Source: Somniosus microcephalus
Lineage: Eukaryota
Direction of reading: 5' to 3'
NCBI GenBank assembly: GCA_052327205.1
Contig: CM126228.1
Location: 20,150,001 to 20,214,000 of the forward strand
DNA length: 64,000 nucleotides
The notes beneath the pieces were generated by a model that worked only from the letters and a program-made list of their open reading frames with translations, was not told the origin of the DNA and did no database searches. The translations under genes were made by a program, and so were the position numbers. Below are positions 1 to 61,710 of the stretch, in pieces (the stretch's first letter is position 1; each line of letters starts with the position of its first letter).

Positions 1-1886
1 GATTGAACTGAATCGAACTGCTCTGTGGTACAGTGTGTCACTACACAGGGTACTGCTTATTTTTTATTAATCAGATTGATGCTATTTAATACATTACATC
101 TCATCTATGTAGCTAGCAAACGGGCTTGGATAGTAAGTCATAATGTGACATACTGCAAAGTGAGCAAAAAGTAATAAAGCAGCAGATAGATATAATAATG
201 CAATTATAATTCATTCTGTAGCATGAACAAAATCTCAACAATGGATCTCAACAACACTTCTATGCTGAAGGGAATACTAATTCCCTGACCTCATCAAAAC
301 GACTTTCAATGTAGTCATGCTTACCCTGAATGTTCTTTTCAAGATCTCACCAAATTATAATGGAGGTTAAGTCTCTATGCAGGTTAACCCTGGTAGTTTT
401 GTCAACACTCTGTTACCTTGATGCTTGCACTATGCACCAAAGAACTTGAAAAAGATCATTTGGCCCACATGTACAATTTACCTTACAATGAATTCAACCT
501 CATCTATTTAATTTTCTACAGCAACATGCGGCATAAATATCCCTGATCCCCAGATGAAGTCAGGGGAAAAAACGCTGTGTATTTAACCATCTCCATTGTC
601 TAACCCTGGCTTCCACTGATAACTGCCTCTCCCTTTCCCTGCTCGTGTGGTTCAACAGTGGCCACTGTGTTTTAAATCAATCAGAGGAGGGGTAGCAGCA
701 AACTGCTGAAAACTGACCTCATGTCCCTCATTCTCCAAGCACTGCTCACCACAGTCTGAACTGACAGCTGGGCTGCTACAGTTTTGCAGCAACCACAACC
801 AGATTCCGCACTGTGAGACTGTCGGTTCTGTGGTAAGTCAGTCCAGGGTTTGGGATTCATCTCAATCAATTATAATAAAATACGGTGTATAATTAGTGCC
901 ACACTGGTGGATTTTGTGTAGAAAACTTGCTGATTTTTAAACTTTTTTTGGTAGCAACATGCTCTACACATTTAAAATGGTTAAATATTCCTTCACTTTC
1001 TCCAATGCTCAAAACCAACTTGATACACATTAACAGACAGGACATATGGTTTGAATGTTTTATTACAGGACTGTTTCACATCTTTGTAAAAGAAAGCCAG
1101 GACTTTTCCCCCTGTATGTTTTCGCTGGACCTCTTCATGGTCCATGGTGCCAGAGATCGTTATGACGAGGTAGGCAAACTGACAGGAAGGCAGTAGGTCC
1201 TTTTACCGCCTTTCTAGTTCCTTTACTTGAACTTCAAATCTGGGGCTAACGTTCAGTCCTGTGGGATTAACAACAATTTTTCCACCCCTGTGGTCAACAA
1301 TAATCTCAAACTCTCCAATATAGCCATGCTTGATCATTACTGTCAGGGATCTCACAATCACTTTCGAGCATGGCCAAATGAGAACCCAGCACTTTCCACA
1401 TTTCTCTGCATTGTTGATGTTTAGGAACTTCGGAACAGGAGGAGGCCATTCAGTCCCTCGAGCCTGATCCGCCAGTCAATTAGATCATGGCTGATCTGTA
1501 CCTCAACTCCGTTCGTCCGCCTTAGCTCCATATCCCTTGAAACCCCTTACCCAACAAAAATGAATCGATCTCTGTCTTGAAAGCTCCAATTGTCCCAGCA
1601 TCCACAGGCTTTTTGGGGGAAGAGAGTTCCAGATTTCTATTACCCTTTGTGTGAAAAAATGCTTCCAGATTTTCCTCCTAAATGGCCTATTTTTAAGCTT
1701 ATGTTCCCTCGTTCTGGATTCCCCCCACCAGGGGCAATAGTTGCTCCATATTTACCCTATTGAATCCTTTTAAACACCTCGATCGGATTACCCCTCAATC
1801 TTCTAAACTCAAGAAAATGCGGCAAGTTTATGCAACCTGTCCTCATAATTTAACCCTCTAAGCCCCGGTATCATTCTAATATGGTG

Positions 1887-1955
1887 GGTAGGTGGGGTCA
1901 AGGCTAATGCTGAGTAGGTGGGGTCAAGGCTAATGCTGAGTAGGTGGGGGTCAAG
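1887..1955 (+). repeat. Short tandem duplication of a 26-bp unit (gtaggtggggtcaaggctaatgctga, about 2.5 copies)
   Basis: Directly visible repeat. Confidence 0.8.
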
Positions 1956-1967
1956 GGATATGGTGGG

Positions 1968-2194
1968 TGACATGAATCAGTCATTCATGAAAGAAAGACT
2001 TATGAAATAATACTGAGCGGCCTGCAGTTGGCGCTGTCCAGGGAGAGTATAAATACTCGGGCACGGGCCCAGCTTGCGCAGGACATTCTTAACAGGAACT
2101 AGTGAAGGACACAACTAGACCTCCATGTTGTAAAACAGTTGATTAAAGCTTTGTTTAACACTTCGACCAAGTGCCTAGTAGTTTTCTTACATCA
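1968..2194 (+). mobile_element. Solo LTR (227 bp), same family as the LTRs at 8103/8723
   Basis: TG...CA termini, TATAAA, ATTAAA, 5-bp TSD GTGGG (1963-1967 / 2195-2199), end-to-end similarity to 8103-8331. Confidence 0.93.
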
Positions 2195-2721
2195 GTGGGT
2201 AAGTGGGGTTGAGAGATATGGTGGGTGCCTAAATGAGGGTCAAGGGGGTATGGTGAGCAAACAGGTAGGTAGGGTTGACCTATGAAAATGACAGGCTTGT
2301 GAGCCTATTTGCTCTTACAGCAATTTTCTATTTCAAGTCCCTCCCATTCGTGTGTTGGGAAAACGAGGTGGGTTGTTTGAGTACAGGAAGAATTGGGCTC
2401 CATTGGGACGTGGCTAAGGATTACATTTTGGTCAGCAATCTTCTGCTACAAAAAAGAGTTACAACATTTTGGAGAATCTGCCCTGCACCCCCCTCCGAGG
2501 CCAATATATCCTTCCTGAGGTGTGGTGCCCAAACCTGAATGCAGTGCTCTCGATGGGGTCTGACCAAGGCTCTGTATAACTGAAGCATCACTTCTCCTCC
2601 TTTGTAATCCAGTCCCTTTGAGATAAAGGAGGCTGTTTGTAAGGGCATTAGCAAAAACATTCATGCAAACTTCTTCAGTCCGCAGTAATAGCTGCCACTT
2701 ATCACGTAGCTTTCTCCCCTG

Positions 2722-2824
2722 ATAGAGGATCAGCCATGATCATATTGAATGGTGGAGCAGGCTCGAAGGGCCAAATGGCCGACTCCTGCTCCTATTTTTC
2801 TATGTTTTTTCTATGTTTCTATGT
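2722..2824 (+). mobile_element. CR1 LINE 3' end fragment
   Basis: GATCAGCCATGATC...GGAGCAGGCTCGAAGGGCC..ATGGCC.ACTCCTGCTCCT followed by a (ttctatgt)n tail. Confidence 0.85.
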
Positions 2825-2881
2825 CACAAAGCAGCTGTGGCAGATGAGTATTAGGTAGTAGGCAGCCAATACCTAGTATAT

Positions 2882-3023
2882 TTTTCCAGTTCTGACAATG
2901 GGTCATCGGCCTGAAACGTTAACTCTGTTTCTCTCTCTACAGATGCTGCCTGACCTGCTGAGTATTCCCAGCATTTTTTGTTTTTATTTAAGCTTTCCAG
3001 CCTCTGCAGTGTTTTGCTTTTGT
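2882..3023 (+). mobile_element. Short Penelope-like pLTR fragment (family A) with a degenerate hammerhead motif
   Basis: Matches the 3' end of the GIY-YIG element at 15362-16577; 10-bp TSD CCTAGTATAT (2872-2881 / 3024-3033). Confidence 0.82.
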
Positions 3024-3228
3024 CCTAGTATATCAATATCTGGTACTCTGAATCAGAATGTTGTGAATGGACAGCAGTCTTCTAATCTTCATTGATTTAC
3101 AACTCATTAATCGCCATGGTTTTCACACCTTGCTCAGTTGCCTTCTAAACTGGACTCAGTGTTACTGATTAAGGAACTGAAATCAAGGGGGGTATTTACA
3201 TTTCTCACCGTGCACATTTCAGATGTAG

Positions 3229-3692
3229 ACACTTTACAACCTTCCAGACTTAACACTGATTTCAATAACTTCAGATCATAACCACTGCTCCTATTTTTTC
3301 AGACAGCAGGTGTTGATAATGGTTCTGTTGTTGCCATTTACAGCTCCTCTAGACCCATCTTTTGTTTCTTTACTTGTCCCATTATCACCCCCTTTTGCCT
3401 CACACCATCATCGCCTGTCATTTAATCACTCCTGCCTTCCACCCTATCACAGACCTTCCCTACTGTTCTTTCCTCCCCTCCCCCCCCCCCCCCCCACCAT
3501 TTCCCTGCCTCTGTACTTGCTTAAAAACTGTTACATCTCTAACTTCTCCCAGTTCTGACGAAAGGTCATCAGCCTGAAATGTTAACTGTTTCACTCTCCA
3601 CAGATCTGCTGAGATCTGCCTGACCTGCTGAGTATTTCCAACATTTTCTGTTTTTATTTCAGATTTCCAGCATCTGCAGTATTTTGCCTTTG
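3229..3692 (+). mobile_element. Penelope-like element 3' end (end of GIY-YIG ORF plus pLTR, family A)
   Basis: Encodes TLQPSRLNTDFNNFRS*, homologous to the end of ORF 15854-16183. pLTR with CTGACGA...GAAA core at 3555-3579. 11-bp TSD TTCAGA(T/C)GTAG (3218-3228 / 3693-3703). Confidence 0.88.
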
Positions 3693-3989
3693 TTCAGACG
3701 TAGGCTTATTGTGCAAGATATGAAATGCATGGAAATGTACAATAATTATGTCCTGACACCACTCTGATTCAGAACACTAGGTATCGGGTCCAATACAGTC
3801 GTAAAGGGGAAAACTGGGCAAGAAAAACAAGGGGAAATCAGCGGCTGCAAGTGGAAACTCTGTGGCAGGTGCTAAGGTCTATGACAGTGGAATCATGGAG
3901 CATTAGTGGCCTTAATAATAATTCCTAAACCTTTTCACCAATCTTTGCCACTGAGTCTTCTAAACAGTCCTAAAAGAGTTTTTTTTTAA

Positions 3990-4336
3990 TTCATTCATGG
4001 GATGTGGGTGTCACTAGCAAAGCCAGCATTTATTGCCCATCCCTAATTGCCCTTGAGAAGGTGGTGGTGAGTCGCCCTCTTGAACCAGTGCAGTCCGTGT
4101 GGTGAAGGTACTCCCACGGTGCTGTTAGGGAGGGACTTCCAGGATTTTGACCCAGCGACTGTGAAGGTAACATGATATATTTCCAACTCAGGATGGTGTG
4201 TGACTTGGAGGAGAACTTGGAGGTGATGGTGTTCCCATACGCCTGTTACCTTATCCTAGGTGGTAGAGGTCGGGGGTTTGGGAGGTGCTGTCGAAGAAGC
4301 CTTGGCGAGTTGCTGCAGTGCATCTTTTAGATGGTA
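3990..4336 (-). mobile_element. 3' end of a non-LTR retrotransposon (same family as 23261-23712)
   Basis: Reverse complement matches 23340-23700 (CACCACCACCTTCTCAAGGGCAATTAGGGATGGGCAATAAATGCTGGC). Confidence 0.85.
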
Positions 4337-4447
4337 CAAGAACTTTTGCCAGCCAAAGTGATGTAGTGATCCCAGTCTCCTGGTCCAGTTTTACTAATGT
4401 AAGAAGTCACACAACACCAGGTTATAGTCCAACAGTTTTATTTGAAA

Positions 4448-4484
4448 TCACAAGCTTTCGGAGCGCTGCTCCTTCGTCAGGTGA
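4448..4484 (-). ncRNA. Predicted minimal type I hammerhead ribozyme (family B), inverted copy
   Basis: Exact reverse complement of 4897-4933. Confidence 0.75.
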
Positions 4485-4896
4485 AGTGGAGAGATGCATA
4501 AAGACACAGCTTATATAGTCAGAGAATAATGCCAGATGATTACAGGTAATCTTTCTAACTGCCATTTATCACACCTCGGCAGAGAGATAATCACAGCAAT
4601 CAAAGGTGTGAATGGTGTCCAAACAGGTCAGTCAGGAAAACATTACATCAAAGAACAATGAGGTGGGGTCACAAGGGGTCAAATGTTGCAGATGCTGGGG
4701 TCTGTATGAAAAACAAAAAACAGACAAAAAAACATTTTTTTTGCTGGAAATCACAGCAGATCCGGCCGCATCTGTGTAGAGAGAGCAAGCCAACGACGAC
4801 TCGAGTCTGGATGACCCTACATCAGGTGGGGTTACCTGTAATCATCTGGCAGTGTTCTCTGACTATATAAGCTGTGTCTTTATGCATCTCTCCACT

Positions 4897-4933
4897 TCAC
4901 CTGACGAAGGAGCAGCGCTCCGAAAGCTTGTGA
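4897..4933 (+). ncRNA. Predicted minimal type I hammerhead ribozyme (family B)
   Basis: TCAC-CTGACGA-A-GGAGC-AGC-GCTCC-GAA-AGCT-T-GTGA: helix I TCAC/GTGA, core CUGANGA/GAAA, 5-bp helix II, palindromic loopless helix III (AGCU). Confidence 0.75.
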
Positions 4934-5388
4934 TTTCAAATAAAGCTGTTGGACTATAACCTGGTGTTGTGTGACTTCTTACATTTGTCCACCCCAGTCC
5001 AACACCGGCATCTCCACACCAGTTTTACTAAAGCTGCTGACATCATTTATTTACCTGAGGTATACTATCATCTTCAGACAATCTTCAGGCTAACAAATGA
5101 AAGCAGAAATATTTTTAACAGGGACTAATGCTCAAAAATGCGTTAATGTTAAATCAATTATAAAATGAACGGAATAAATAAATGTTCCTCAGTGATTTAC
5201 CTGGACATATTTTAATTGTCTTACAATGAAGCAAAACTCTGTTTTCTTGAGTGATGCAGTCTGCAGAAGAACATACGTCCTGAGGTAATTCAAAGCATTG
5301 GTAGGACTCGTTTCAAGAGACCTAGGTTTATTTGTATTCCTCCCCGCAGTCTTCCTGTCCTGAAGCAGCGACTTGTACTGGGGTACAG

Positions 5389-5629
5389 TTCACTCAGAGG
5401 GTTGTGAATCTTTGGAATTCTCTACCCGAGGGCTGTGGATGCTCAGTCGTTGAGTATATTCAAGGCTGAGATCGATAAATTTTTGGACTCTAGGGGAATC
5501 AAGGGATATGGGGATAGGGCAGGAAAGTGGCATTGATGATGTTAAAGTTCAGCCATGATCTTATTAAATGGCGGAGCAGGCTCGAAGGGCCGTATGGCCT
5601 ACTCCTGCTCCTATTTCTTATGTTTCTTA
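5389..5629 (+). mobile_element. CR1 LINE 3' end
   Basis: TTCACTCAGAGGGTTGTGAATCTTTGGAATTCTCT (FTQRVVNLWNSL) followed by the conserved 3'UTR and TTCTTATG tail. Confidence 0.88.
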
Positions 5630-8102
5630 AGTGACAGCGGCTCTTCGATACCAATTTGCCATAGTCAATACTGGAGTGTGGACAGTGACTGGCAAGATAC
5701 TCAAAGTTAAGACCAGTCCTGTGCTCATCTGCCATGCACACATATGCCTTCCAACAGAAGTATCTGGATAATAATCGGGCACAGCAATCATGACCCACTT
5801 TTTTTCTCTCATCCTTGGCCCAGAAACACCAAGACCAATTATATTGCCCTGTTGCCACCCTAGATACGATCACTTAAATCAACACAGACCAGCAATTGAT
5901 CTTGGCATCTACCTGGTCAGAATTGTTCAGTGCCATACTACGTGGCACATTTGCCCATTCAGCATTCATGAAGGTGCTGTGAATTGTATTTCTGTTGAAA
6001 TTTTGACAATGTTAAAGCAATTCCTCCGAATGTGATACTTGATTTCTTTTGTAGGAGAAGGAATGAACAATTCCATGACCGAACTTAGGAATCTGTGAAT
6101 GTTGAATCCATGAAGTGGGGTCAAATCTGCATTTAATTCTGGAAAGCAGTGTGTTTAAAAGCACATCCTGGAGCTGCCTGCTTGTTTTGAGAGACAGATT
6201 TCTTTGTTCCTATAGCCAAGCGTACATATCTGTGGTAACATTTTAAAACGCTGTGCATAATTGCTGTAATTAAGAGACAATTTACTCAACTATAACATTC
6301 TACTGTTTGAATTGCATGTCTAACTTAATATTTGCTCTTGTATATCATCAGTAATTCTGCTTTTACTCACCATGGAACCCTTCGCATGTATGCTTTCTAG
6401 AAGTCTTTGAGAAATAAGTGGAAAAGGTGACCATGTGATGTTAAAATCAGCATCTTACTTACAGTGCAATTCTAAACCCAAATAATCTCCTCGCTGGACT
6501 TTGGCGTTGGCACCATCCCTAACTGCTGTGTCAAATAGAATTCTTGTTAATGTATCTAGTATTTAGTCTATTCCTTAGAGTAAAAGTGCACACCAAATAC
6601 AATGTGATGGACAAGGGTCGCAGAAATCATTAAGGCAGTTAATCCGTTGGTGATATTTAACCTTTAGAGGACAATGGAACACTTTCTGACAAAAATAGAT
6701 AGCAAAGACAGTTGCAATCATAGCTTGATAGGTTGATGCTTTGAGTGTAGCCCTTTGTCATGTTGACGAACTGTTCTGATGATCAGGCAGACTTCAAACA
6801 TTAACCTTATTTTTCTTTCCCTGAGGCGTATCAGCCTGCTGTGACATTCCAGCATTTTTGTTTTTTGTTGCAGATTTTCAACAGCTTTTCTTTTACTCGC
6901 AATGTTGGAGCAGCCAAATGCTGTGATTTTTCAGATTTCTCGAATTCTATCTTATATAATGCTAGTCAGTTGTTGAAACTTAAATAAATTCACAGTGTGA
7001 GATGTTGTGCTGTAAAAAACGGATTCATTCACGAATCTGTGGCATTTCTCTTTAAAAAAAACACATTATAAAGCCAGGGTTTGTAGAACCTTCTCCACAA
7101 GCAACAGTTATAGCATTTAGTAATTACTCTCTATTTCTGGTACACAGATCTGTGGCAGTACAGAGAAGGTGAGATTGGATGAGTGTTTAGACTGCATCGG
7201 GTGTAATTGCATATCTGAGTCCTGACAGCAGATCCAGATGTCTGTGGTAAGTAGATGATGAATATTGGCTTCTGCAAATGTAACTGTGTTTGTTGTAAAT
7301 TAATTAAAATCCTAATCCCTCCTTTTGAACGGTCAAGAATTTAGATTTACTGCAGGAGAAATCGTTTTTCACCCACTTCAGTGAATGCAGTATTGATGAG
7401 TGCCTGTTCTCACTGACATTCAAAGTTTAAACTAGGGTCAACACAGCCTTTTCTATAATATATACACAAGAGAAAGTTCGAAAGCCAAGTTTTAATGTAG
7501 TTTAATATGCAAATTTCTAAATTCTTTAAGGCGGCAGGTCATTTAACACTTTGTTCCTATTAAAGATATGTCACTTTAATAAAGAATACTAAAGGATGAC
7601 TAGGTCAGCTTGTTGATTGCAAGCTGAAACATGTGGAATCTCAGTTCTGTGTGTATTAAATGGGTGGGTTTTACACCTGCTTTTAATAGGATAGAGGGCA
7701 TCATACAGAAAACAGTTCTTTTAATCAGTAGCCAAACCAAAATGTAATTAAATGATTTAATAAAAGTAAAAATACAAAATCACATAACAAAACTTCACAC
7801 TGCACTAGGTGTCGTGTCTGCTGCAGTGTTAACTTGCCCACGTTTAATATTTTGGGTGCAAAATAATCACAAGTACACTGGCAGCCTCAGCCATCTGCTG
7901 CTGAAACCAACATCCATTCTTTTGTTACCTCCAGACTTGAATGCTCTCCCATCTTCCACCCACCATCCCAAACTCTGCTGCCCACATCCTATCTCACACC
8001 AAGTCTCATTCACCCACAACCCCAGTGCTCACCGACCTACATTGGCTTCCGGTCGACCAACACCTCGATTTTAAAATTCTCATCCTCCTGCTCAAATCCC
8101 TC

Positions 8103-8951
8103 TGACATGAATCTTGTCATTCATGTGGAAATGACTTAGGAAATGATACTGGGCGGCCTGCTGGTGGCGCTGTCCAGGGAGAGTATAAATACTCGGGCAT
8201 GGGTCCAGCTTGCTCAGGACATTCTTTAACAGGAACTAGTGAAGGACACAATTGGATCTCCATGTTGAAAAACAGTTGATTAGAGCCTTGTTTAATACTT
8301 AGACCAAGTGCCTAGTAGTTTCCTTACATCAATTTAATCAACTGCAACCCGCTCCACGCTCTGAGTGATTTGGGAACAGACAGCTATGATTCAAACTGGA
8401 GAAGGGAACTCGGATGTAGTAATCAATCCATCATGGAGAAACTACTCAGATCCACCTGTCTTGACCTGGACCCGAATTCACTTACAGCTGCTAAGGTATG
8501 GCAATGCTGGTATTGTACCTTCAGCAACTTTCTCGAGGAGTGTGGTGAGAATGTTCCTAATAAGTTACAAATGCTTGCCAATTATGTATCCCCTCATGTG
8601 CTTGACTATATTGAAGACTATGTAGACTATGACTCCACTATCCAAACAACTGCGTCTATTCTTAGTCCGATTAATTCGGTAGAAGGAAGCTGCCGGACTT
8701 CCAATCATTCAGGCGGGAAGAATGACATGAATCTTGTCATTCATGTGGAAATGACTTAGGAAATAATACTGGGCGGCCTGCTGGTGGCGCTGTCCAGGGA
8801 GAGTATAAATACTCGGGCATGGGCCCAGCTTGCTCAGGACATTCTTTAACAGGAACTAGTGAAGGACACAACTAGATCTCCATGTTGAAAAACAGTTGAT
8901 TAAAGCTTTGTTTAATGCTTAGACAAAGTGCCTAGTAGTTTTCTTACATCA
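8103..8951 (+). mobile_element. Miniature non-autonomous LTR retrotransposon (849 bp): LTRs 8103-8331 and 8723-8951, 391-bp internal region
   Basis: Two 229-bp TG...CA direct repeats differing at 9 positions; 5-bp TSD CCCTC (8098-8102 / 8952-8956); polypurine tract AGGCGGGAAGAA just before the 3' LTR. Confidence 0.95.
8433..8648 (+). pseudogene. Truncated N-terminus of a Gypsy-type Gag
   Basis: MEKLLRSTCLDLDPNSLTAAKVWQCWYCTFSNFLEECGENVPNKLQMLANYVSPHVLDYIEDYVDYDSTIQT resembles, from memory, the M(D/E)KLLRPxRLDxDPNSxxAAKxWxHWxxTFxNF start of aquatic-animal Gypsy Gags. It lies immediately downstream of the 5' LTR. Confidence 0.75.
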
Positions 8952-11900
8952 CCCTCAATAGTCTCGCCCCTCCCTATATCTGTAACCTCCTCCAGCCCTA
9001 CAACCCTCCGAGATCTCTACGCTCCTCCAACACTGGCCTCTGGTGCATCCCCTACTTTCTTTGCCATACCTTTGGCAGCCGTTTAGGGCTGAAGCTCTGG
9101 AATTCCCTCCCAAAACCTCTTTGCCTCTCTACCTCCCCCTCCTCCTTTAAGATGCTGCTTAAAATTTACATCTTTGACTAAGCATTTGGTAACCTGCCCT
9201 AGTGTCTCATTTGGTTCTGTGTCAATTTATGTCTGACTACACTCCTGTGAAGCACCTTGGGACATCTTACTACGTTAAAGGTGCTATATAAATGCAAGTT
9301 GTTGCTGATTTACTGAATGAAAAGCAAAGTTACAGTCACACTGAAAGAACTTCAGATAACCTGGCTCCAACCACTCACTCACTGTTCATATGCGCTATTT
9401 AAAAAAGGCAGTACTGCACACTGTAACCTTAACCACAAACTGCCGTCTGACACCCAACACTGTGGCTTTAGTGTTGATTTTTCAGAGCAGTCAGTACCCT
9501 GTCTATTCAAGAATTGAATCAACCTGAAAGGTGATCCTGTTCCTTTTAAACATAAGGGCTGTGAAAATCTGGCAGCCTGGGAGGGTGGTTTTGCAGCACA
9601 ATATCTGCGGAGAGGAGAGGTGTGGCTTTGGGATGGAAACCTGACCTGGCATGGCGCTATTGCTTTTCAGTCCCGTTGAAAATCCCAGCCTTTTTGGGGC
9701 AAGCCGATAACACGCCTGCCCAAAAATGGGTGGCCATATTATATTCTAACTTAAATAGAAATATGTCATATGAAATATTTCCCTCATTTACACCCTTAGC
9801 AACACTGGATGCCAGGGACGCCCATGAGTCCCGAAGATCAGGCATTGTTCAGGCCATGGGTTTGAGGGGAGCGATTCTACAGTCACAGCCAGTTTTGGGA
9901 GTGCTACGCATCTCTCCCTCACGGGCATGGGCAACGCCTAAGATTTGGCCTGGCACATGCCCATTTTTTGTTGTTGCTGGGATCAGAAAATCAGGCCCTC
10001 ATGGTGTGCTCGATGATAATCAATTTCACCTTAGCACCATCAGCATTAAATATAAGGTACATGACTCCGGTAATTGTGTGATACAGATCAGCCCTCGCTT
10101 AATCACATGTTTCCTGAACAATGGAAACTTGCTGTGGGGTGAAAGTTGGGTCTTAGCGTTATAGTACTGAAGATGTGTGTTTGTCGTTAATCTCATTGCC
10201 AACGTAATCGCTGAAGATCACAGTGCACCATATTTCAGGTGTAACCCAAATCTACAATGTTCAATGTCCTTCTCCTACATTTTCATACTCCATTCTTTTT
10301 ATACCATTCAATACTATCTTATGCTGGGCTCCTGATCTTTTGTAAACAATGGCAAATAAATACACAGCAAAATGTTTAAATCAATTGCAACCCATTTATT
10401 TCATTCATTGTATGTGACATCTAACCAACTGCTGGTTCTCTTTTGCAAGGATTATGTATGCTGGCGGCTGTAAGATTACACCGGCCGTCTGCTGGGATTC
10501 TGGCCCCTTTGGCTTAACGTTGTGAGGGCTCTCTGCTTGTTAGCTATGTCCCAAGACTGATTGGTGCTGCTGGCTTCCTGCTGCCACCTCCCATGCCTGC
10601 TGTACCTGAGGCTTATAAAGGGCCAGCCAATAAGGAGTCCCTGATTCCTTGCAATGGGGTTTCCAGTCCCTAGACTGTAAAACTGGCTAAGCACACTCTA
10701 ACATCCCATTCTTAAGCAAAATTTTGCTCAATTAACAGCTATCTTGGACTTTCAGCTTTAAATGCCTCCAAATTTCAGTTCAAAGCTGACTGTAGCTTTT
10801 TTTTTTCATTGGTTGCCCTGCTGTGCAGGAGTTAAAGTTAACCTTTTGGCCCTAGTAGTAAACATTGTGTGTTAAGAAGGTTTCTTTGTAACCTTCAACA
10901 GTAACCCTCAGTTAACTCCTCAATGGAAACCTGTTGCAAACACCCCAACACAAGTGGTTCCCCCATAGCGTTGTGTGTCTGTGCTGCTTGCTAGCAGTTT
11001 GTAAACCTCGATTCATAATGGCAGATCTCTAAAGCACCTCATTAAATTACTACCAGCACTATGAAATAAATACTGCACCAGCAGCAATCCAGACTGCAAT
11101 TCCTTGGTATAATGTACCCGGTTGTAATGAATCCCCATCTACAAGGAACAGTTTGAAATATCCTGATTCAAATGTGTTATAATTCTATAATAATATAATA
11201 TCGCTTGAACAAATGATTCAAATGTATGTCAGCAGGTTCATTGTATAATTTGGAAAATTACACTGCTCAATCTCCGGAGAGATCCTCCACCAGCTGTATT
11301 GTCTGCTTCCTGGCTGCTCGTCCTCCATGGATTGCAGTGATTGCACCTCCATGATATGGGAACAAACCAGTCCTGTGAACACAGATAACTTATCCTGTGT
11401 TCCAGCATCTCATTAGGTTCTGCTAGCGAGAGAGAGCGTCAGACCTCCAACATAACCCCCCCCCCCCCCCACCCCACCTTCCTCCAGGGCTTTGTCAGAA
11501 TTCACTTTGTTAAAGGTCACCCTGCTTTTGAACAAGACCCCGATATAAAATGCACTTTTAGCACTGGGGAAATTGGCGCTCATTACATGTGGGGTCCGCT
11601 ATAATGGGAAAACTGAAGGAAGGTTTTCCTTCAGTGAACAGTTGCACTGCTTCTTTGCTAGATACACCACAACGGTGTGCTACTGGAGTAGGAGGAAAAG
11701 CTGGTCGCACCTTCTTGCCCACAGATGTACACCTTCTGTCAGCAGCTCCTGATGTGGAATTACCAGTAATGCGGAGAAACAGTTCAGACAGCTTCGCCTT
11801 GTGAAGTGCGGTGACAGGACGCGGCAGTCGGGGCGGAGGAGAGTCTAGATTTTTCTTTGAAAGACAAAGTGAATGTGCCGCTTTAGTTTTTTTTATATAA

Positions 11901-12467
11901 GTCATAAATTAAATAGAGCAAAAATATTTGTTTTCAAACACTAATCTTTGATTTGTAAGCTAGGAACAATGAACGGTTACATCTGGGCAGCTGATGTGGC
12001 CATGAAGTCAAAGCAATATTTGAACTGGGGAAGTAAAGCTAGGACCACCCGCATTTTGAAGACAAGACTGAATAAGACAAAAAAAAACAAGTTTGTTGGG
12101 AAACAGCATTTGAGTCATTATTATGGCTCGCACTGTGTTAAACAAAGCTTGTAGGTGCAACTTCCATCCACCGCAGGATAAAGACAACTGTGGTACTCAA
12201 CTTGAGCCCAATGATAGCTACCCAATTAAACACAATATGGGTACAAGGTAGAAAAGCACTGAAGCTGCATGTAAATCAGGAACAAATGTGGCTTATGTTG
12301 TATCCAGTACCACTGACTTTATCCCCCAACCAGATGATTATAGGTTTGACTACCATTTAGTTGTCTACCAATCAACTACGCCTGCCAATGTTGGATCAGA
12401 TTATGTCATTTGCTGAAGTGTCTCATGGTGGTTCAGTGTTATATGGTGGTTCAGTGTTATATGGTGC

Positions 12468-12935
12468 GTCAGTTGTGGCTCAGTTAGAAAGCACACTCGC
12501 GTCTGAGTCAGAAGGTTGTGGGTTCAAAGCCCCGCTCCAGTGACTTGAGCACATAAAGCTAGGCTGACGCTCCAGTGCAGTGCTGAGGGAGTGCTGCACT
12601 GTCGAAGGTGCCGTCTTTCAGATGAGATGTTAAACTGAGGCCCCGTCTGCTCTCAGGTGGACGTAAAAGATCCCATGGCACTATTTCGAAGAAGAGTAGG
12701 GGAGTTATCCCCGGTGTCTTGGGGCCAATATTTATCCTTCAACCAACATCACAAAACCGATTATCTGGTCATTATCACATTGCTGTTTGTGGGAGCTTGC
12801 TGTGCACAAATTGGCTGCCACATTTCCCACATTACAACAGTGACTCCACTTCAAAAGTACTTCATTGGCTGTAAAGCGCTTTGAGACGTCCGGTGGTCGT
12901 GAAAGGCGCTATATAAATGCAAGTCTTTCTTTCTT
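12468..12935 (+). mobile_element. tRNA-derived Deu-domain SINE (SacSINE1-like) with L2-type tail
   Basis: A-box TGGCTCAGTTAG, B-box GGTTCAAAGCCC, Deu domain GTGCCGTCTTTCAGATGAGATGTTAAAC...AAAGATCCCATGGCACT, tail GGCGCTATATAAATGCAAGTCTTTCTTT. Confidence 0.9.
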
Positions 12936-15361: not shown

Positions 15362-16577
15362 AATAAAAACAGAAAATGCTGGGAATACTCAACAGGTCAG
15401 ACCACCTCAGAAGGCCATGTCAACCACGGTAGAGGGGAATCCTTGGTTGAGGAAAATGGAAGACACTAGTGTGGAAGCTGGCATCGTCAGAACAGGCCCG
15501 CAACCATGTCCATTCCATTTCCCGCACTTCTGCTCTCACCCCTTTCCCTCCCTCCCAGAACCATAATAGGGTTCCCCTTGTCCTCACCTTTCACCCCACC
15601 AGACTTCACATTCAACGGATCATCCTCCGCCATTTCTGCCCCCTCCAGTGTGATCCCACCACCAAACACATCTTGCCCTCCCCTCCCTTTTCAGCATTCC
15701 GAGGGGACTGCTCATTCTGCGACACCCTGCTCCACTCCTCAATCACCCCCAACAACCCCTCCCCTTCCCACGGCACCTTTCTGTGCAAGTGCAGGAATGT
15801 AACCCCTGCCCTTTTACCTCCTCCATTCCCAGGGCCCCAAACACCCCTTCCAGGTGAAACAGCGATTTACTTGTACTTCTTGCAATTTAGTATACTGTAT
15901 TCACTGCTCACGATGCGGTCTCCTCTACATTGGGGAGACCAAATGCAGATGGGGTGACCGCTTTGCGGAACACCTCCGTTCAGTCCGCAAACCTGACCCT
16001 GAGCTTCCGGTCACCTGTCACTTTAATTCACTGGACCACTCCCACTCTGACCTCTCTGTCCTCGGCCTCTTACACTGTTCCAACAAAGCTCAACGTAAGC
16101 TCGAGGAACAGCACCTCCGCTTTCGATTAGGCACTTTACGCCCTTCTGGACTCAACATAGAGTTCAACAATTTCAGACCATAACTTTTGCCCCTATTTTT
16201 TCAGATGGCAGCTGTTGCTGATGATTCTGCTGTTCCCATTTACACCTCCTCTAGACCCATCTTTTGCTTCTTTACTTGTCCCATTACCATCTCCTTTTGC
16301 TTTGTACAATCATCCCTTTTGTCATTTAATCTCTCCTGCCTTCCATCCTATCACAGACCTCCCCTTTTGTTCTTTCCTCCCCTCCCCCCTTTCCCTGCCC
16401 CTGCACTTGTTTAAAGTATGTTGCATCTCTAACTTTTTCCAGTTCTGACGGAGGGTCATCGACCTGAAGCGTTAACTCTGCTTCTCTCTCCACAGGTGCT
16501 ACCTGACCTGCTGAGTATTTCCAGCATTTTCTGTATTTTATTTCAAATTTCCAGCATCTGCAGTAGCCTGCTTTTGT
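15362..16577 (+). mobile_element. 5'-truncated, 5'-inverted Penelope-like retroelement (family A)
   Basis: GIY-YIG ORF, RT-linker remnant (RVPLVLTFHP..LHIQRIILRHF..LQ.DPTTKHI), pLTR with hammerhead motif at 16440-16478, inverted pLTR piece at 15362-15403, 14-bp TSD AGAA(C/T)GTTGACAGG (15348-15361 / 16578-16591). Confidence 0.93.
15854..16183 (+). pseudogene. GIY-YIG endonuclease domain of the Penelope-like element (frameshifted from the upstream linker)
   Basis: KQRFTCTSCNLVYCIHCSRCGLLYIGETKCRWGDRFAEHLRSVR...HFNS..HS..DL.V.GL...R...E...L.FRLGTL.P.GLN: NLVY/YIGET motifs, catalytic R/E and GLN terminus. Confidence 0.92.
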
Positions 16578-32185: not shown

Positions 32186-33178
32186 GGGGGCGAAATTCGG
32201 TATCACCCCGTTTGGGGCGCTAGTATTGGCGGTGCGCAAAGTTTAGCGCCAGGCGCAAATTATCGCCACCTCCTGTGAAATTGGGTACCTGCGCCCCTGA
32301 GGGTGATTGCGGCGCTAAATCAGGCGCTGCACGACAGTCTTAAGGCGCTAACCCAGCGGAGCGAGGCGCTATCTCACAGTGCTGGCGAAGCTCATGTGAT
32401 TTCAGTCAGCAATGGAACACAGACACACTGGCACCATCCAATTCTTAAAGGGGAGTTCTGACGAATGGTCATCGACCTGAAACGTTAAATCTGTTTCTCT
32501 CTTCACAGATGCTGCTTGACCTGCTGAGTTTCTCCTGCATTTTCTGTTTTTTTCTTAAAGGGGAGGGTTGATCTTGCCTTGCTCTCCATCCACATCCTGC
32601 TCATTGCAACCTTGAATCTCAGCCTGGAGAGACCTGTACATCTAATCTGCTGGAAAGAACAATGGAGAGAACCAGGGAAAGATCTCAAGAGTGCAGCCCC
32701 CACAGTCTCTTCTAATTCGATACAAGGAAGGGCAAATCAAAACCAACCTGCAAAACTCCTTCACACAGCGTGGAATCTCTCCAGAAGTCTCTCTCTCTCT
32801 CTCTCTCTCACAATGTGTGGTGCAAAAATGTCACCTTCAAAAAAGGCAGGAGGTGTTCCCCTTTAAATAGCGCTCCCTTAGTCCCTTTCAGACAGCATAA
32901 CGGTCCCCTCAACCAGTCATTGCTAGCGCCAGGCGGTAAGGCAGGGGGCGCCACTGAATTTCTGGACTGGGGCGTCCCAAGGGCGTTGCACTCTGGAATG
33001 ATGTCATGATCTGCGTGCGCCGGTGAGCGGGCGCTACGGTTTAGCGCCGGCGCTAAATGTCCGCTCAATTTGGGAAGAGGCACAGGGTTCGCTGCGCCCA
33101 GGCGCTAGTTGGTTAGCGCCCCACTTCTCGACCTCTTTAGGCGCTAATGGGTGGTGCAACCAACCGAATTTTTCCCCC
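32186..33178. mobile_element. GC-rich PIF/Harbinger-type non-autonomous element (993 bp including nested insert)
   Basis: TIRs GGGGG(CG/AA)AAATTCGGT; 3-bp TSD AAT (32183-32185 / 33179-33181); many GGCGCTA/TAGCGCC subterminal motifs. Confidence 0.87.
32456..32551 (+). mobile_element. 96-bp Penelope-like pLTR fragment with hammerhead motif, nested in the MITE
   Basis: 14-bp TSD TTCTTAAAGGGGAG (32442-32455 / 32552-32565); TT-CTGACGA-AT-GGTC-ATC-GACC-T-GAAACGTT. Confidence 0.88.
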
Positions 33179-34429: not shown

Positions 34430-34614
34430 TAAATAAAAACAGAAAATGCTGGCGATACTCAGCAGGTCAGTATTTGAACCTGACGAAAGGTCATCGACCT
34501 GAAACATAAACTCTGTTTCTCTCTTCACAGATGCTGCCTGACCTGCTGAGTATCTCCAGCATTTTCTGTTTTTATTTCAGATTTCCAGCATCTGCAGTAT
34601 TTTCTTTTTGTATT
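34430..34614 (+). mobile_element. 185-bp Penelope-like insertion: short inverted pLTR piece, hammerhead motif and tail
   Basis: 34431-34470 is the reverse complement of 34539-34578; CTGACGA-A-AGGTC-ATC-GACCT-GAAAC at 34480-34505; 12-bp TSD AGAGATTAATTT (34418-34429 / 34615-34626). Confidence 0.88.
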
Positions 34615-38336: not shown

Positions 38337-38728
38337 GAGAAACTTATAAAATTCTAACAGGGCTAGACAGACTAGATGCAGGAAGGATGTTTTGGATCCA
38401 GAACCAGGGGTCACAGTGTAAGAATAAGGGGTAAGCCATTTAGGACAGAGATGAGGAGGAATTTCTTCACCCAGAGTGGTGAACCTGTGGAATTCTCTAC
38501 CACAGAAGGCAGTTGAGGCCAATTAATTAAATATATTCAAGGAGTTAGATATATTTCTTAAGGCTAAAGGGATCAAGGGATATGGGGAGAAGGCAGGGAC
38601 AGGGTACTGAGTTTGGATGATCAGTCATGATCTCATTGAAACATAGAAGATAGGAGCAGGAGTAGGCCATTCGGCCCCTCGGCTCGAGGGGCCGAATGGC
38701 CTACTCCTGCTCCTATCTTCTATGTTTC
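38337..38728 (+). mobile_element. CR1 LINE 3' end terminating in a perfect palindrome
   Basis: ETYKILTGLDRLDAGRMF... then the 3'UTR; arms 38638-38681 and 38685-38728 are exact reverse complements. Confidence 0.9.
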
Positions 38729-38729
38729 T

Positions 38730-39170
38730 AAAATAACAACAGAAAATGCTGGAAAAACTTAGCAGGCGAGGCAACATCCGTGGAGAGAAATTAAGAGTTG
38801 ACGTTTCGGGTGAACCCTTTTTCAAAACTGGAAAGGAAATAAAATAGATCGAAGGCAGGGCTGCGATAGAACAAAAAAAGTAAAGAGACATTAAGAGGTA
38901 TTCAAAACCAGACGAGATGGTAATAGGACAGTGGAGACAAAAGATGGCTCAGATTAGGTGTGAAGTGTACTGGCAGGATGAGAAACAGCTGCCATGTGGG
39001 AAAGAGAAAAAAAAAGGAAAGGGGGGGGGGAGAAAGGGAAGACCCAAAACAAAGGGGTGGAAAAGAAATATATAAGTAAAAATGTAATAGGGGCTGAGGT
39101 TATGATCTGAAATTGTTTAACTCGATATTGAGTCCGGAAGGCTGCAAAGTGCCTAATCAGAAGATGAGGC
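38730..39170 (-). mobile_element. Penelope-like 3' end (GIY-YIG terminus plus pLTR), family A-related
   Basis: Minus strand LIF*LGTLQPSGLNIELNNFRS* at 39168-39103; degenerate hammerhead CCAGTT-TTGAAAAAGGGT-TC-ACCC-GAAACGTC-AACT near 38795-38832. Confidence 0.85.
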
Positions 39171-39175
39171 TTTAT

Positions 39176-39259
39176 TTCGTCAGGTGAAGGAGCAGTGCTC
39201 CGAAAGCTTGTGATTTCAAATAAAGCTGCTGGACTATAACCTGGTGTTGTGTGACTTCT
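39176..39259 (+). mobile_element. Penelope-like family B pLTR fragment with an inverted 5' end
   Basis: 39186-39259 matches 4906-4979; TTCGTCAGGTGAA is the reverse complement of the expected TTCACCTGACGAA. Confidence 0.82.
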
Positions 39260-47182: not shown

Positions 47183-48425
<1,243 letters not shown>

Positions 48426-50148
48426 TAAGGTAGTTGTGTTGCTGGTAGTGCTGGCTGTCATTGTTCAGATGTTTTGCAATAATATTTGGCAAGAGCACAA
48501 TATAGTATAAGGAGGGTTGAGCAGCGTGTCACTTGTCTATGAGGAGCATTTATGCTAGCATTTTACAATAAGAATTTTCATGCGGTTTAAGGACCAACTG
48601 TGTAAACTAAATTTCCTAGCTATCCAACAGCAGTCTTAACAATATTTAATGACTGCAATTCTTGCAACCCTTAGTAGTGCAACAAAAATATTGTTTTTTA
48701 AGTAGTGCATTCTGAACGCAGAATGTATCCCACAAGTGAGGACTAAAGTCGCGTCCCAGAGGTATGGAGCGTTGTATTGGTTCTATTGACTGACTTATTT
48801 CAGTCGGCAGCTTGTCCTCAAATATTGGTCCATATCACAGCTGTAATGTAACACCATGTTGAAATACTATACTGTAGTTTAGCAGGGACTGGAATGCATT
48901 TTATTATTTGACAAGAAAATGGTACTGCTGGGAATAAAATGTTAATTTTTAATGCCCCGTGTCAATAGTAAATTCTGCCTTGTATCAACTAGACGCAGAA
49001 AGATCTGCCTCAACCCTTATTTCAGAAGATTACCTTCCTTTTCCTGCTGCCACTTGTGCAAGTTTCATATTGTAAGCAGAGATAAATCACTCAAATCACT
49101 GAAAAGGCAGGATTTCATCTAATTTATTTTGCTTTGTAATTTTAAAATATTGTCCCTATGTGTGAGCCCAGTTGGTGTGTCAGCAGGTTATCTTTTTCAT
49201 TGAACAAGGAGCACAAGCCTCTTCCTTTCTCTGCCCCCCTCTCCCCCCCGCCCCCACCAAAGTTTAGGGTGCCGAGGCCAATTGAAAAGATTGTCTTTCT
49301 GCTTTTCAAGCTAGCCATTCTTGTGGCTTGTGCACGAAACTACTTTTAATGGAAAATTGTAGCAGTAATTGAATTGGGACTTCAAACTTGCAGTCTGGTT
49401 ATTTGAAATGTTAGAATAAAATAAATAGCATGCACTTCCACCAATTGCCAATTCTAAAATGTGTTCTTGTGGTATTGGAATTTTGGGGCTGAATGAAGTA
49501 AGAAGTTAATTGCAGTCTACACAGCTAAATACATCTACGCAATTGATACTGAAAGGTCATTTATTCTTTAAATATTAAACTGATATTTAATTGATCACTA
49601 TAGGAGGTCGCTAGGGCCAGTCAGATTGTTAATATTTGAGAAAATTTAGAGGGTGTTCTTCCAAAGTCCAGAGCTTCTATGGTCACGGAATTACAGAATC
49701 CTGACGTTCTTGCTGTGCTGTTGGGAGACATTTGCAGTCCAGCCATTATCCGTCTGTTGTTTTGATCTGAGCCTATGGTCATATCTTGGTTTTCTGTTGC
49801 TGACATTGTTCCAGGATGTAACTTGTGGCTTGCATTCTGGCGTTTTATAATGGCAGCATGTGATGCGGGTAGTGTACAATAATACTGAGGTGGTGTGACC
49901 TTGCTGGTATCCCATTTTGTAGTCCCTTTGGAAATTAAGGCACTAGAATGTTGACATCTGTCATAAGGTTAGCATCTGTTCCTTGAGTGCAGATTAAATG
50001 TCTGGATGCTTCTGCTCATGCGTTACATTTTATCAGGGAGCAGCATATCCCTACAGTGAATACTGCATAAGAAATATAAGCCATCCTGATAGTAATAAAA
50101 TCTTTAGTTTGACAGCATGGTCTCTTTCAGCTCGTGGATAGAGTTCAG

Positions 50149-59496: not shown

Positions 59497-60575
59497 TAAT
59501 AAGTTTGCTACATCACTTTTGTACACCGTTCGTCTTGTGTTTGGTAAAATACTGTTGCTCTGAGAATCCATTTTTAAGAAAATCTAATTCAATAATTAGA
59601 CCAGAAGGGAGTTACTTTAACCGAAACGGGTAGCAGCAGAAGCTTTGTCATTTACTTATTGTAGAGAATTATTCAGTTTACACTTTCAGTGCATTGGCAC
59701 ACATGGTGACCTTTCTGCAACATTACAAAGGATTTGTCCCCTCCTTTTATGACTCAAGGATATGCCTGCCTACTACCCTTATGGCAGGGAATTTTGCATC
59801 TTTTAAATGAAGTTTGGTACCAGTTAACTGAAGTTTTCTTTCTTTCTGGTAAGTCATTTTTAATGGCCTGGAAAGCCACTTGCATTCATTAAGGAATAAT
59901 GGTGGGACCTTCCAAGGAAGATTTTCAGTAGAAGACCTTCACTTTGATGAAGAAAGCTAGTGAGCGGGTAAAAATAGATGATTGAAAAGTGGAAGGTACT
60001 ATCACAAATTAGACAACAAAACCGTATGACTGTTGTAGCGCAAAATAGACTGACGAGTTGCTGTAGTTAGGTTTTTTATCACTTTTTGTCGTCCGTAAGC
60101 ATTCTTGCTACGTGTAATGAGTTCAGTGCACATTAGATTTGCACTGTTCCTTTAAGATGCTATAAAGATCCTCCCTGTATCATGGTAACACTATTTCCTT
60201 GGCTTGCCATCCTGATTTGGTAGAAAGATTTGCATATAGAATGAGATGTATGTTTTAAAATTGATCAACTAATGCTAAATCTTGGATAGTTGGTTCTATG
60301 CTCAACTGCATTGGAACTTCCTAATTTTAACAGCTATCCAAGAAAGGACACTTTGTCCCTTTTTTGGTCCAGACTGAGTTAGAATCAAAGATGAAGTTAT
60401 CCCACTGGGTGTCCAACTTTTCATAGATGATTTATAAAATAAAATATCTAATATGTACCAGTGAAACACTTGCCGTAAGTTAAAATGGTCTGTTGTATTC
60501 AATCTTTGAATCATTCAAACTGTAGAAATTATGCCAGATCTCCAGATTTTACAATGCTTAAATTGTTTGTTTCAG

Positions 60576-61710
60576 ATACCATGAAAGCGAATTGTCCGAC
60601 CATGACTGGCCTTTGCACAGTAACTTTGAGGCAGATGATGTTCAGCGTGATCCACGAGCAATGTCTGACATGACTGAAGAGGAGGAGGTGCAAGTGGACC
60701 CTCGCAAGTATTTAGATGGAGACCGTGAAAAGTATTTGGAGGATCCTGCATTTGACTTGAACTTTTCCAGCGAACATTCTTGGCCACATCCAGATCACCA
60801 TGAAAACAAATACTGTGATCTGGAATGTGGCCACACCTGTAACTATAAAGTGGGGTCACCATCCTACCTGGATAACTTGGTGTGGAGGGAGAGTGAAGTG
60901 AACCATTACTATGAGCCCAAACTTATTATAGACCTATCTAACTGGAAAGAGCAGAGCAGAGAGAAGCCAGATAAAAAAGGCAAATCAAAGTGTGAAAAGA
61001 ACGGGCTGGTGAAAGCACAGTTAGCTCTGGTGGAGGCATCCCAACAGATTGTTGAGAAGGACAAAGAGAAGATCCGGGGGTTTGACTTTGATTCTTTCAT
61101 GGCAAGCACCATCAAGCTTAGTTTGCAGCCAGAGTCTCCTGATGTAGACAAGCTGAATGACTTGAACAGCTCAGTGTCCCAGTTGGACCTAAAAAGCTCA
61201 ATGTCAAATTGCAAATCTGTCAGTCAGGAGAAGGAGGAGAAGGGGATGGCCAATTTGGCTCAACTAGAGTGTCTAAGCCAGAATCCATGGGAGTGCCAGT
61301 TTGCAATCGATGGAAGTGGTGGCGGGGATGAAAGCTTTCTAATTCACCTCGATGAAGATGTTTGTTGGGACAGCAGGAAAGATGAACAGCTAGAAAAAAG
61401 TACATTCACTAGTTACTTAGACAAGTTATTCAACAAAAAAGAGGATGTAGAAATAGCAGAATCAGAGCCGGCAAGTGACAGGAAGCTGGGGGACAGAATT
61501 AGCGAAGAGAGTGTGAAAGAGATGAGCAGAAATGGGGAGATCCCCTTTAGCAAGCAGTTGGAGTCCATTGGTATCCCCCAATTTGACAATCCTGTCAGTT
61601 CACCGCTGAAATCTAGAGCGATTCAGACCACTTTAGCACCTGCGGCTGCAAAACTGTCTCCTCAGATTCCTCATAAGACCTATAGTAGCATCTTGAAACA
61701 TTTGAACTGA
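60576..61710 (+). CDS. MAPK6: MAPK6 last coding exon (1135 nt; C34 domain and C-terminal tail); total CDS 2202 nt, 733 aa
   Basis: TTGTTTCAG| YHESELSDHDW...EEEVQVDPRKYLDGDREKYLED...HYYEPKLIIDLSNWKEQ...SPQIPHKTYSSILKHLN*. Confidence 0.98.

Follow-up and report, generated by a model that had tools for sequence, protein, structure and literature searches.

Two hammerhead ribozyme motifs lie back to back, on opposite strands, in a short insertion at 4398-5018 of a cartilaginous-fish genome (i.e. within a window, the whole stretch of DNA analysed, of 64,000 nt). This locus raises the question of whether such a layout constitutes a working ribozyme pair or is a by-product of the insertion of a mobile element. 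The best reading is that of an ordinary, non-coding relic of two-ended target-primed reverse transcription. With a probability of about 0.85, 4398-5018 is a 5'-truncated, head-to-head Penelope-like element (PLE) of a family termed B, most likely formed by two-ended priming. It contains a nested pLTR of a second family (termed C), and its ribozymes are probably silent.

Anatomy and classification of the family B insertion

The insertion is flanked by a 13-bp TSD (4385-4397 on the left, 5019-5031 on the right) with 13/13 matching positions, and only 1 of 19,976 random 25x25-nt pairs shared a match of at least 13 nt. As the last 2 nt of the TSD also match the element, the left edge is uncertain by 2 nt. 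Two family B pLTRs form 152-bp inverted repeats within this TSD. The left arm is inverted and terminates at a short, tail-less end (4398-4549, minus strand); the right arm is in direct orientation (4832-4983, plus strand), and the arms differ at 3 of 152 positions (i.e. 149/152 identical). The inverted repeats of ~150 bp within a 13-bp TSD that were claimed in a preliminary description of this DNA were thereby confirmed. Only the right arm continues into a tail, an A/C-rich segment of 35 nt (4984-5018, plus strand) that is predicted to form a stem-loop closed with 4946-4956. The left arm goes no further than the base of the inner hairpin, a point that the right arm exceeds by 35 nt. The predicted fold was not significant on its own, as the stability of 4894-5018 did not rise above that of shuffled sequences (z -1.3; separate tests, -1.4 and -1.9). 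The spacer between the arms comprises 282 nt and contains the pLTR of the second family. Its leftmost part (4550-4669, minus strand) is an extension of the left arm and, judging from continuity, is probably the upstream 3' UTR of family B; no second copy of 4550-4669 was found within the window. A 14-nt quasi-palindrome (6-bp stem, 2-nt loop) is located at 4538-4551, and the right arm has its 5' end within the counterpart of this sequence. The tail, the nested family C pLTR at 4670-4823 and a set of outward-facing TATA/Inr motifs had not been part of the preliminary description.

A third copy of family B was detected at 39169-39259 (plus strand). This copy is also head to head, has lost its left arm to a deletion and is inverted at a point within its ribozyme core: the reverse complement of 39169-39177 is identical to 4938-4946 and that of 39176-39189 to 4895-4908, whilst 39186-39259 matches 4906-4979 at 72 of 74 positions. 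A search for a TSD around this copy found none. Hence both family B loci of the window are inverted.

No coding sequence was identified in 4398-5018, in agreement with the earlier claim. The longest stop-free stretch is 103 codons, there was one weak, sub-cutoff Pfam match and a tblastn search with 23 Penelope-type proteins produced no match in this interval. An ORF combining RT with a C-terminal GIY-YIG domain was demonstrated for a further family of the window (family A); for family B, neither the window nor protein searches with two arm translations yielded one (antisense, 51 aa, 0 of 10 candidates fitting; sense, 47 aa, 0 matches). The family A remnant at 15451-16183 gave a GIY-YIG match below the Pfam cutoff (E 0.006) and its relatives carry both RVT_1 and GIY-YIG; a species name accompanied 8 of its 23 protein matches and all 8 were sharks or rays. 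There is no ATG between 4894 and 5018, and so the ORF of family B must start further on.

By architecture, 4398-5018 is a truncated EN+ PLE insertion, having a pLTR with a hammerhead, a one-sided tail in the range of 30-40 nt (35 nt) and a TSD of a type that varies in length (13 bp). The accessible text on Adineta vaga (PMC3846280) describes PLEs with an inverted pLTR, a one-sided 31-bp tail, TSDs of 8-10 bp, TATA and Inr motifs and unrelated DNA between solo pLTRs. Pen2a_Av of this rotifer, together with the general PLE scheme (PMC8557442), resembles family B, as far as the available parts of both sources go, in head-to-head pLTRs, a one-sided tail of 30-40 nt, a TSD, TATA and Inr motifs, a palindrome near the junction and non-coding DNA between solo pLTRs. 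In contrast to the A. vaga insertions as described in that text, the family B insertion has no ORF, its TSD is 13 bp instead of 8-10 bp, and the enclosed DNA is a pLTR of another family with a short repeat of its own. Poseidon PAc of Anolis carolinensis, in the accessible portion of PMC11167929, is similar in that two ends bound an A/C-rich tail within a predicted stem-loop, the pLTR carries a hammerhead and the cleavage site is uncut in inserted copies; the PAc ORF starts at stem II, whereas family B lacks an ATG between 4894 and 5018. Non-LTR retrozymes, as presented in the available text of a preprint (bioRxiv 10.64898/2026.07.22.740005), share with family B a non-coding nature, a derivation from PLE pLTRs and a type I hammerhead, and are present in the one chondrichthyan genome sampled there. 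These elements are defined as head-to-tail tandems of at least two ribozyme units. The family B insertion was not assigned to them, being head to head and not tandem, and 0 of 6 tandem arrays in the window overlapped it.

A literature search did not find a description of family B, although this family may already be catalogued. Similarly, a search on shark Penelope hammerheads, Penelope twin-priming inversions and template-switch chimeric pLTRs retrieved no paper on these points. The main text of PMC4209133 contains no occurrence of shark or Callorhinchus; the supplements of that paper and of the retrozyme preprint may hold chondrichthyan examples. All of the features listed in the preliminary description are already published. 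As one more truncated Penelope-type copy, the insertion matters little in itself, but it provides a clean teaching case.

Hammerhead motifs of family B

Each motif is a minimal type I hammerhead of 37 nt, the right copy being at 4897-4933 (plus strand) and the left copy at 4448-4484 (minus strand), 412 nt apart. The right copy is identical, letter for letter, to the reverse complement of 4448-4484, confirming the back-to-back motifs reported previously as exact. In the right copy, helix I consists of 4 bp (4897-4900 with 4930-4933), the core residues C3-A9 correspond to 4901-4907 and are followed by an extra unpaired A at 4908. Helix II has 5 bp and a 3-nt loop and is followed by G12-A13-A14. 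The palindrome AGCU occupies 4925-4928, with U17 at 4929 (mirrored at 4452 in the left copy), such that cleavage at the CUU triplet is predicted after nt 4929 in the right copy and after nt 4452 in the left copy. The core (i.e. CUGANGA ... GAAA ... UH) is intact in both copies. Other characteristics of minimal hammerheads were also observed, namely a helix I of 4-5 bp, G10.1-C11.1 in helix II, one unpaired base after A9 and a palindromic 15.1-16.1 segment (AGCU in family B, ACGU in most family A copies) permitting helix III only in a dimer. The minimal type I geometry, the dependence of helix III on two copies and the predicted site after 4929, all proposed earlier, are supported by these observations.

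Minimal hammerheads are known from PLEs generally (according to the accessible text of the review PMC6155905). Those described in PMC4209133 have a base between positions 9 and 10.1 and a palindromic 15.2-16.2 without loop 3; they share with family B the 4-bp helix I, the unpaired base between 9 and 10.1, G10.1-C11.1, the palindromic helix III and the occurrence of opposite-strand pairs. The extra A, noted in the preliminary description, is accordingly not an oddity but a conserved and described feature of PLE minimal hammerheads. A difference was noted in helix II, which is 7-8 bp in the Schistosoma families of that study and 5 bp in family B.

The motifs are unlikely to have arisen by chance, as a strict descriptor found 3 in the window (both family B copies and one of family A) compared with 1 in 300 simulated windows, and 100 shuffles yielded no match to the motif pattern. 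A search with hammerhead models, proposed earlier as a check, gave a divided outcome. No hammerhead family of Rfam was matched: the whole window gave 3 weak and unrelated matches at E<=1, and 4300-5100 (801 nt) gave 4 of this kind at E<=10. However, a covariance model built solely from 6 family A motifs detected both family B motifs at 21.8 bits (E about 0.0014, under a short calibration). As this model recovered both motifs, we infer that the Rfam result reflects a limit of models built on fuller ribozymes. The family A model also gave a weak match to another hammerhead-like sequence at 2556-2593 (plus strand; 16.5 bits, E 0.046).

Family A pLTRs have the 37-nt motif layout of family B and one of them directly follows the RT/GIY-YIG remnant at 15451-16183. 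The claimed origin from a Penelope-like pLTR is therefore supported by anatomy, by homology to family A and by the match to the family A-trained model. When families A, B and C were compared, both sides had changed in 7 of 11 helix pairs and 88.6% of 88 cells were paired, a value reached in 0 of 500 shuffles, for a sample of about three lineages from one window. Family B itself contributes two full copies and one partial copy, and the single motif change of the latter falls in loop II. The covariation between families would point to selection on the motif in active elements and is silent about the copy at 4398-5018. Relatives of the motif were found neither in plasmids nor in prokaryotic genomes.

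Formation of the inversion and the nested family C pLTR

The frequency of inverted layouts was assessed from the other Penelope-type copies of the window. TSDs of 9-14 bp were present at 6 of 9 loci, a test that left out the fragments at 6.8k, 26.2k, 38.1-38.8k and 53.8k; searches at 24.2k, 3.5k and the third family B copy found none, and neither did a separate search at 56k. Apart from the nested family C pLTR, five copies are bounded by TSDs. Three of these are head to head (4398-5018, 15362-16577 and 34432-34614) and two are simple solo pLTRs (2882-3023 and 32456-32551), each starting at the ribozyme and flanked by a TSD (10 and 14 bp). The family A insertion at 15362-16577 consists of a short inverted arm, an RT/GIY-YIG remnant with a frame change near 15800-15950 and a pLTR with a tail, within a 14-bp TSD with one mismatch. 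The family A insertion at 34432-34614 is a smaller, non-coding twin of 4398-5018 with a 12-bp TSD and a 6-nt junction filler. In both families, one end is short and the other, about 35 nt longer, carries the tail; this holds for each of the 3 inverted copies. Since 3 of 5 TSD-bounded copies are inverted, the back-to-back layout is a routine product of these elements. It is the commonest layout among these copies, and opposite-strand minimal hammerheads 100-700 bp apart, mostly in truncated copies, are described in PMC4209133.

Additional observations were made on pLTR starts. Five pLTR 5' ends (2882, 24250, 32456, 34476 and 4829) lie close to where helix I begins, about 12 nt away at most, and none is at the cleavage site, which suggests an RNA 5' end or an RT stop near helix I. 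By eye, 3530-3552 and 16420-16441, located 5' of family A hammerheads, resemble 3' splice sites (branch point, pyrimidine run and CAG) ending at helix I; they can alternatively be read as a weak TATA at -30 with an Inr. A 3' splice site-like sequence before the hammerhead is described for Drosophila Penelope (PMC4209133).

The inversion is best explained by priming from both target strands. The RT/GIY-YIG protein would nick these strands 13 nt apart and each 3' end would prime reverse transcription on an uncleaved family B RNA. Priming of the left arm would occur at the inner start site (i.e. the end equivalent to 4983) and that of the right arm 35 nt further on, with inclusion of the tail. 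Both cDNAs would then pass through the pLTR and hammerhead, stop early and join head to head. As the two cDNAs would share a template pLTR, the two ribozymes would be one motif copied twice, and as both arms span the cleavage site, the template RNAs would have been uncut or religated. The short and tailed ends of all 3 inverted copies are expected if the target strands use both internal start sites of one RNA or of a protein dimer. The accessible text on the Anolis element (PMC11167929) reports that the purified protein cuts and extends both strands, that two internal RT start sites bound the tail, that ribozyme mutants insert normally, that cleavage by the ribozyme requires the protein and that no RNA-seq reads end at the ribozyme site.

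Fold-back self-priming at the 14-nt quasi-palindrome is an unlikely alternative to two-ended priming. Self-priming on an antisense template, from palindromes, is the preferred explanation for head-to-head inversions in the available text of PMC3846280, where it is argued for palindromes at inverted junctions, and it would suit a right arm that starts inside the quasi-palindrome and a third family B copy that is almost without a spacer. A simple fold-back, however, leaves no spacer, yet the arms at 4398-5018 are separated by a further 120 nt even when family C is discounted; nor does it explain why every inverted copy (3 of 3) combines a short end with a long one. It is very improbable that the insertion is a miniature inverted-repeat DNA transposon or an assembly artefact. 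Although long inverted repeats, a TSD and an absence of coding sequence might suggest either, the 35-nt tail is one-sided and outside the inverted repeat, the arms differ at 3 sites, the termini are the family-specific short and long ends and the TSDs of the window range from 9 to 14 bp. A MITE/TIR transposon was rejected as the inverted repeats do not both abut the TSD, there being 35 nt between the right arm and its TSD copy.

The family C pLTR, a solo pLTR plus tail at 4670-4823 (minus strand), belongs to a second Penelope-type family that is related to family A (nhmmer with 6 family A pLTRs, best E 6.7e-07). It starts at its hammerhead, has a 3' end in register with the long end of family A and sits at the inversion junction of the family B insertion. 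By alignment, its hammerhead-homologous segment (4791-4829, minus strand) has three core changes (positions 9, 14 and 15.1) and an intact helix II; the family A covariance model did not detect this segment at E<=2. A perfect 10-nt palindrome (4798-4807) extends across the broken GAAA, and two of the three core changes could have come from one template-switch, palindrome-correcting event at this site. Lunse et al. 2017 reportedly dealt with PLE hammerhead variants. The pLTR is flanked by a perfect 9-bp direct repeat, with a left copy at 4661-4669 (13/15 matching if extended to 4658-4672) and a right copy at 4824-4832 that overlaps the 5' start of family C and the first base of the right arm. 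Matches of 9 nt occurred in 31 of 19,976 random pairs, a frequency to be read with the repeat having been noticed post hoc, though the ends of family C were set by homology. This repeat is 33% A+T as compared to 50-83% in 5 other TSDs, and such a G+C-rich sequence fits endonuclease targeting less well. Family C retains 5 CpGs, with an observed/expected ratio of 0.63 versus 0.41 for the window; CpG counts did not date family C relative to family B.

The simplest reading, to which we give roughly even odds, is that family C was a later, independent insertion into the family B element, because it resembles the free solo pLTRs at 2882-3023 and 32456-32551. Insertion into or beside other PLEs is known (according to the accessible text of the review PMC6765202). 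There is perhaps a one-in-four prospect that family C was already present in the 3' UTR of the source family B copy, the left cDNA having read through it and stopped at the upstream copy of its TSD. Three core changes in family C, set against a 2% difference between the family B arms, suggest that family C is older, and the extension of the repeat to 13/15 is also in keeping with prior residence. Conversely, the cDNA would have had to terminate almost exactly at the TSD, a few bases away at most, the 5 retained CpGs (0.63 versus 0.41) suggest little decay and two of the three core changes may represent the single palindrome-correcting event. Slightly more doubtful is a one-step, two-family chimera, in which the left cDNA jumped from the family B RNA to the tail of a family C RNA, copied it to the 5' end and was joined by microhomology. 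The left arm and family C have the same orientation, allowing one cDNA strand to hold both, and family C is exactly at the inversion junction, bounded by a G+C-rich repeat. A 6-nt filler occurs at the junction of an inverted family A copy (34471-34476) and DNA caught between solo pLTRs is on record in the available text of PMC3846280. Against such a capture are the perfect 9-bp repeat flanking family C (31/19,976 by chance) and the likeness to free-standing solo pLTRs with a start at the ribozyme and a TSD of their own (10 and 14 bp). Were the RNA of a second PLE family captured in one step at an inversion junction, which we consider improbable, this would be the smaller novelty of the locus.

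Predicted folding and activity, and the genomic setting

Each arm contains a TATA-like box 30 nt before an Inr-like motif, with a putative +1 located 3 nt before helix I and an outward direction. These comprise, on the left (4483-4517, minus strand), a box at 4510-4517 with +1 at 4487 and, on the right (4864-4898, plus strand), a box at 4864-4871 with +1 at 4894; both are motif matches from which promoter function is surmised. A TATA at -28 to -33 accompanied 12 of the 1,541 Inr-like motifs of the window, and 2 of these 12 are the family B arms. A bacterial promoter scan was disregarded as irrelevant to a vertebrate. The promoter of Drosophila Penelope is TATA-less (PMC2377424).

Whichever strand is read through, the antisense arm precedes the ribozyme in the RNA. 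Sense-antisense pairing was predicted with a probability of 0.9996 and helix II with a probability below 1e-17; forcing the ribozyme fold cost 68.9 kcal/mol, and sequestration was predicted to occur already in the nascent RNA. In RNA from an arm's own start there is no antisense, and helices I and II were predicted to fold (probabilities of 0.7-0.8 and 0.93-0.94, respectively). As outward putative promoters would yield sense-only RNA, fold-back silencing would be confined to read-through transcripts. The earlier proposal of such silencing thus stands for read-through RNA, at a penalty of about 69 kcal/mol, but not for any transcript. The description of the ribozymes as 'intact' likewise applies to their sequence, whereas energy calculations give the helix III dimer no advantage. 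The double hammerhead had an energy of -19.1 kcal/mol versus -21.6 kcal/mol for two monomers, in a nearest-neighbour calculation that ignores the catalytic core, tertiary contacts and help from proteins; the intermolecular helix III had a probability of 0.0 in the energy model, and co-folded outward RNAs gave a structure other than the double hammerhead.

The ribozymes at 4398-5018 are probably silent, since the two motifs are on opposite strands, allowing no tandem double hammerhead in cis, and the antisense arm made first in read-through RNA would sequester the motif. RNA from the putative promoters of the arms would present a single motif needing a partner RNA and probably also the protein of the element. 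The CUU at the cleavage site obeys the NUH rule, U being the poorest H at a hammerhead cleavage triplet. Non-GUC cleavage sites are generally weaker (as given in the accessible text of PMC2238771). Minimal hammerheads show no cleavage as monomers and weak cleavage as dimers, even in tandems (PMC4209133).

We regard as quite unlikely the proposition that the inverted arms act as a divergent promoter pair, whose two nascent sense RNAs, starting 3 nt before each hammerhead and 400 bp apart, would cleave each other as a trans dimer. Retention of a TATA at -30 and an Inr-like motif in both arms would accord with this, as would the predicted folding of helices I and II from those starts (0.7-0.8 and 0.93-0.94). 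The inverted piece of the third family B copy, moreover, ends at 4895, one base from the predicted +1, but a 4-nt microhomology alone could explain this end. The disfavoured dimer (-19.1 versus -21.6 kcal/mol, helix III probability 0.0), the other structure adopted by co-folded outward RNAs, the mere 4 bp of each of helices I and III, the weak cleavage of published minimal hammerheads even as tandems (PMC4209133) and the TATA-less Drosophila promoter (PMC2377424) all argue against trans cleavage. Should the outward promoters fire and their RNAs cleave in trans, the partner that a solo minimal hammerhead is missing for its dimer would come from inverted pLTRs, and this would bear on the role of these very numerous but weak ribozymes. 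The corresponding model, of a self-sufficient trans-cleaving pair that is switched off by read-through fold-back, is a long shot.

Other features were noted elsewhere in the window. At 38727-39259, a 5'-truncated family A copy (minus strand), with a GIY-YIG C-terminus at 39095-39169 and a decayed hammerhead at 38796-38829, lies directly against the third family B copy in head-to-head orientation, near a CpG-rich region; a single event for this fragment and the third family B copy was dropped as they share no TSD. The tail of a family A copy is interrupted at 38638-38728 by a perfect 44-bp hairpin with a 3-nt loop, which is the source of a sub-threshold MIR529 match in Rfam and is probably a fold-back of a short repeat end. 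The left flank of the family B insertion is a dispersed repeat up to 4338. No host exons were identified in 1-12,500, where a Pfam scan covered 107 of 190 listed stop-free stretches (those in this interval of at least 42 aa and with little repeat overlap), and a scan for acidic exons found nothing. In the Pfam scan, 5 stretches gave a match at E<=0.01, the only one to reach its cutoff being a ribosomal protein S8-family fragment at 1206-1475 (minus strand; E 3e-05), possibly a processed pseudogene of RPS15A. From their translation, we take 47793-48428 and 60562-61710 (plus strand) to be coding exons of an ERK3/MAPK6-like kinase, the former lying about 43 kb downstream of the family B insertion.
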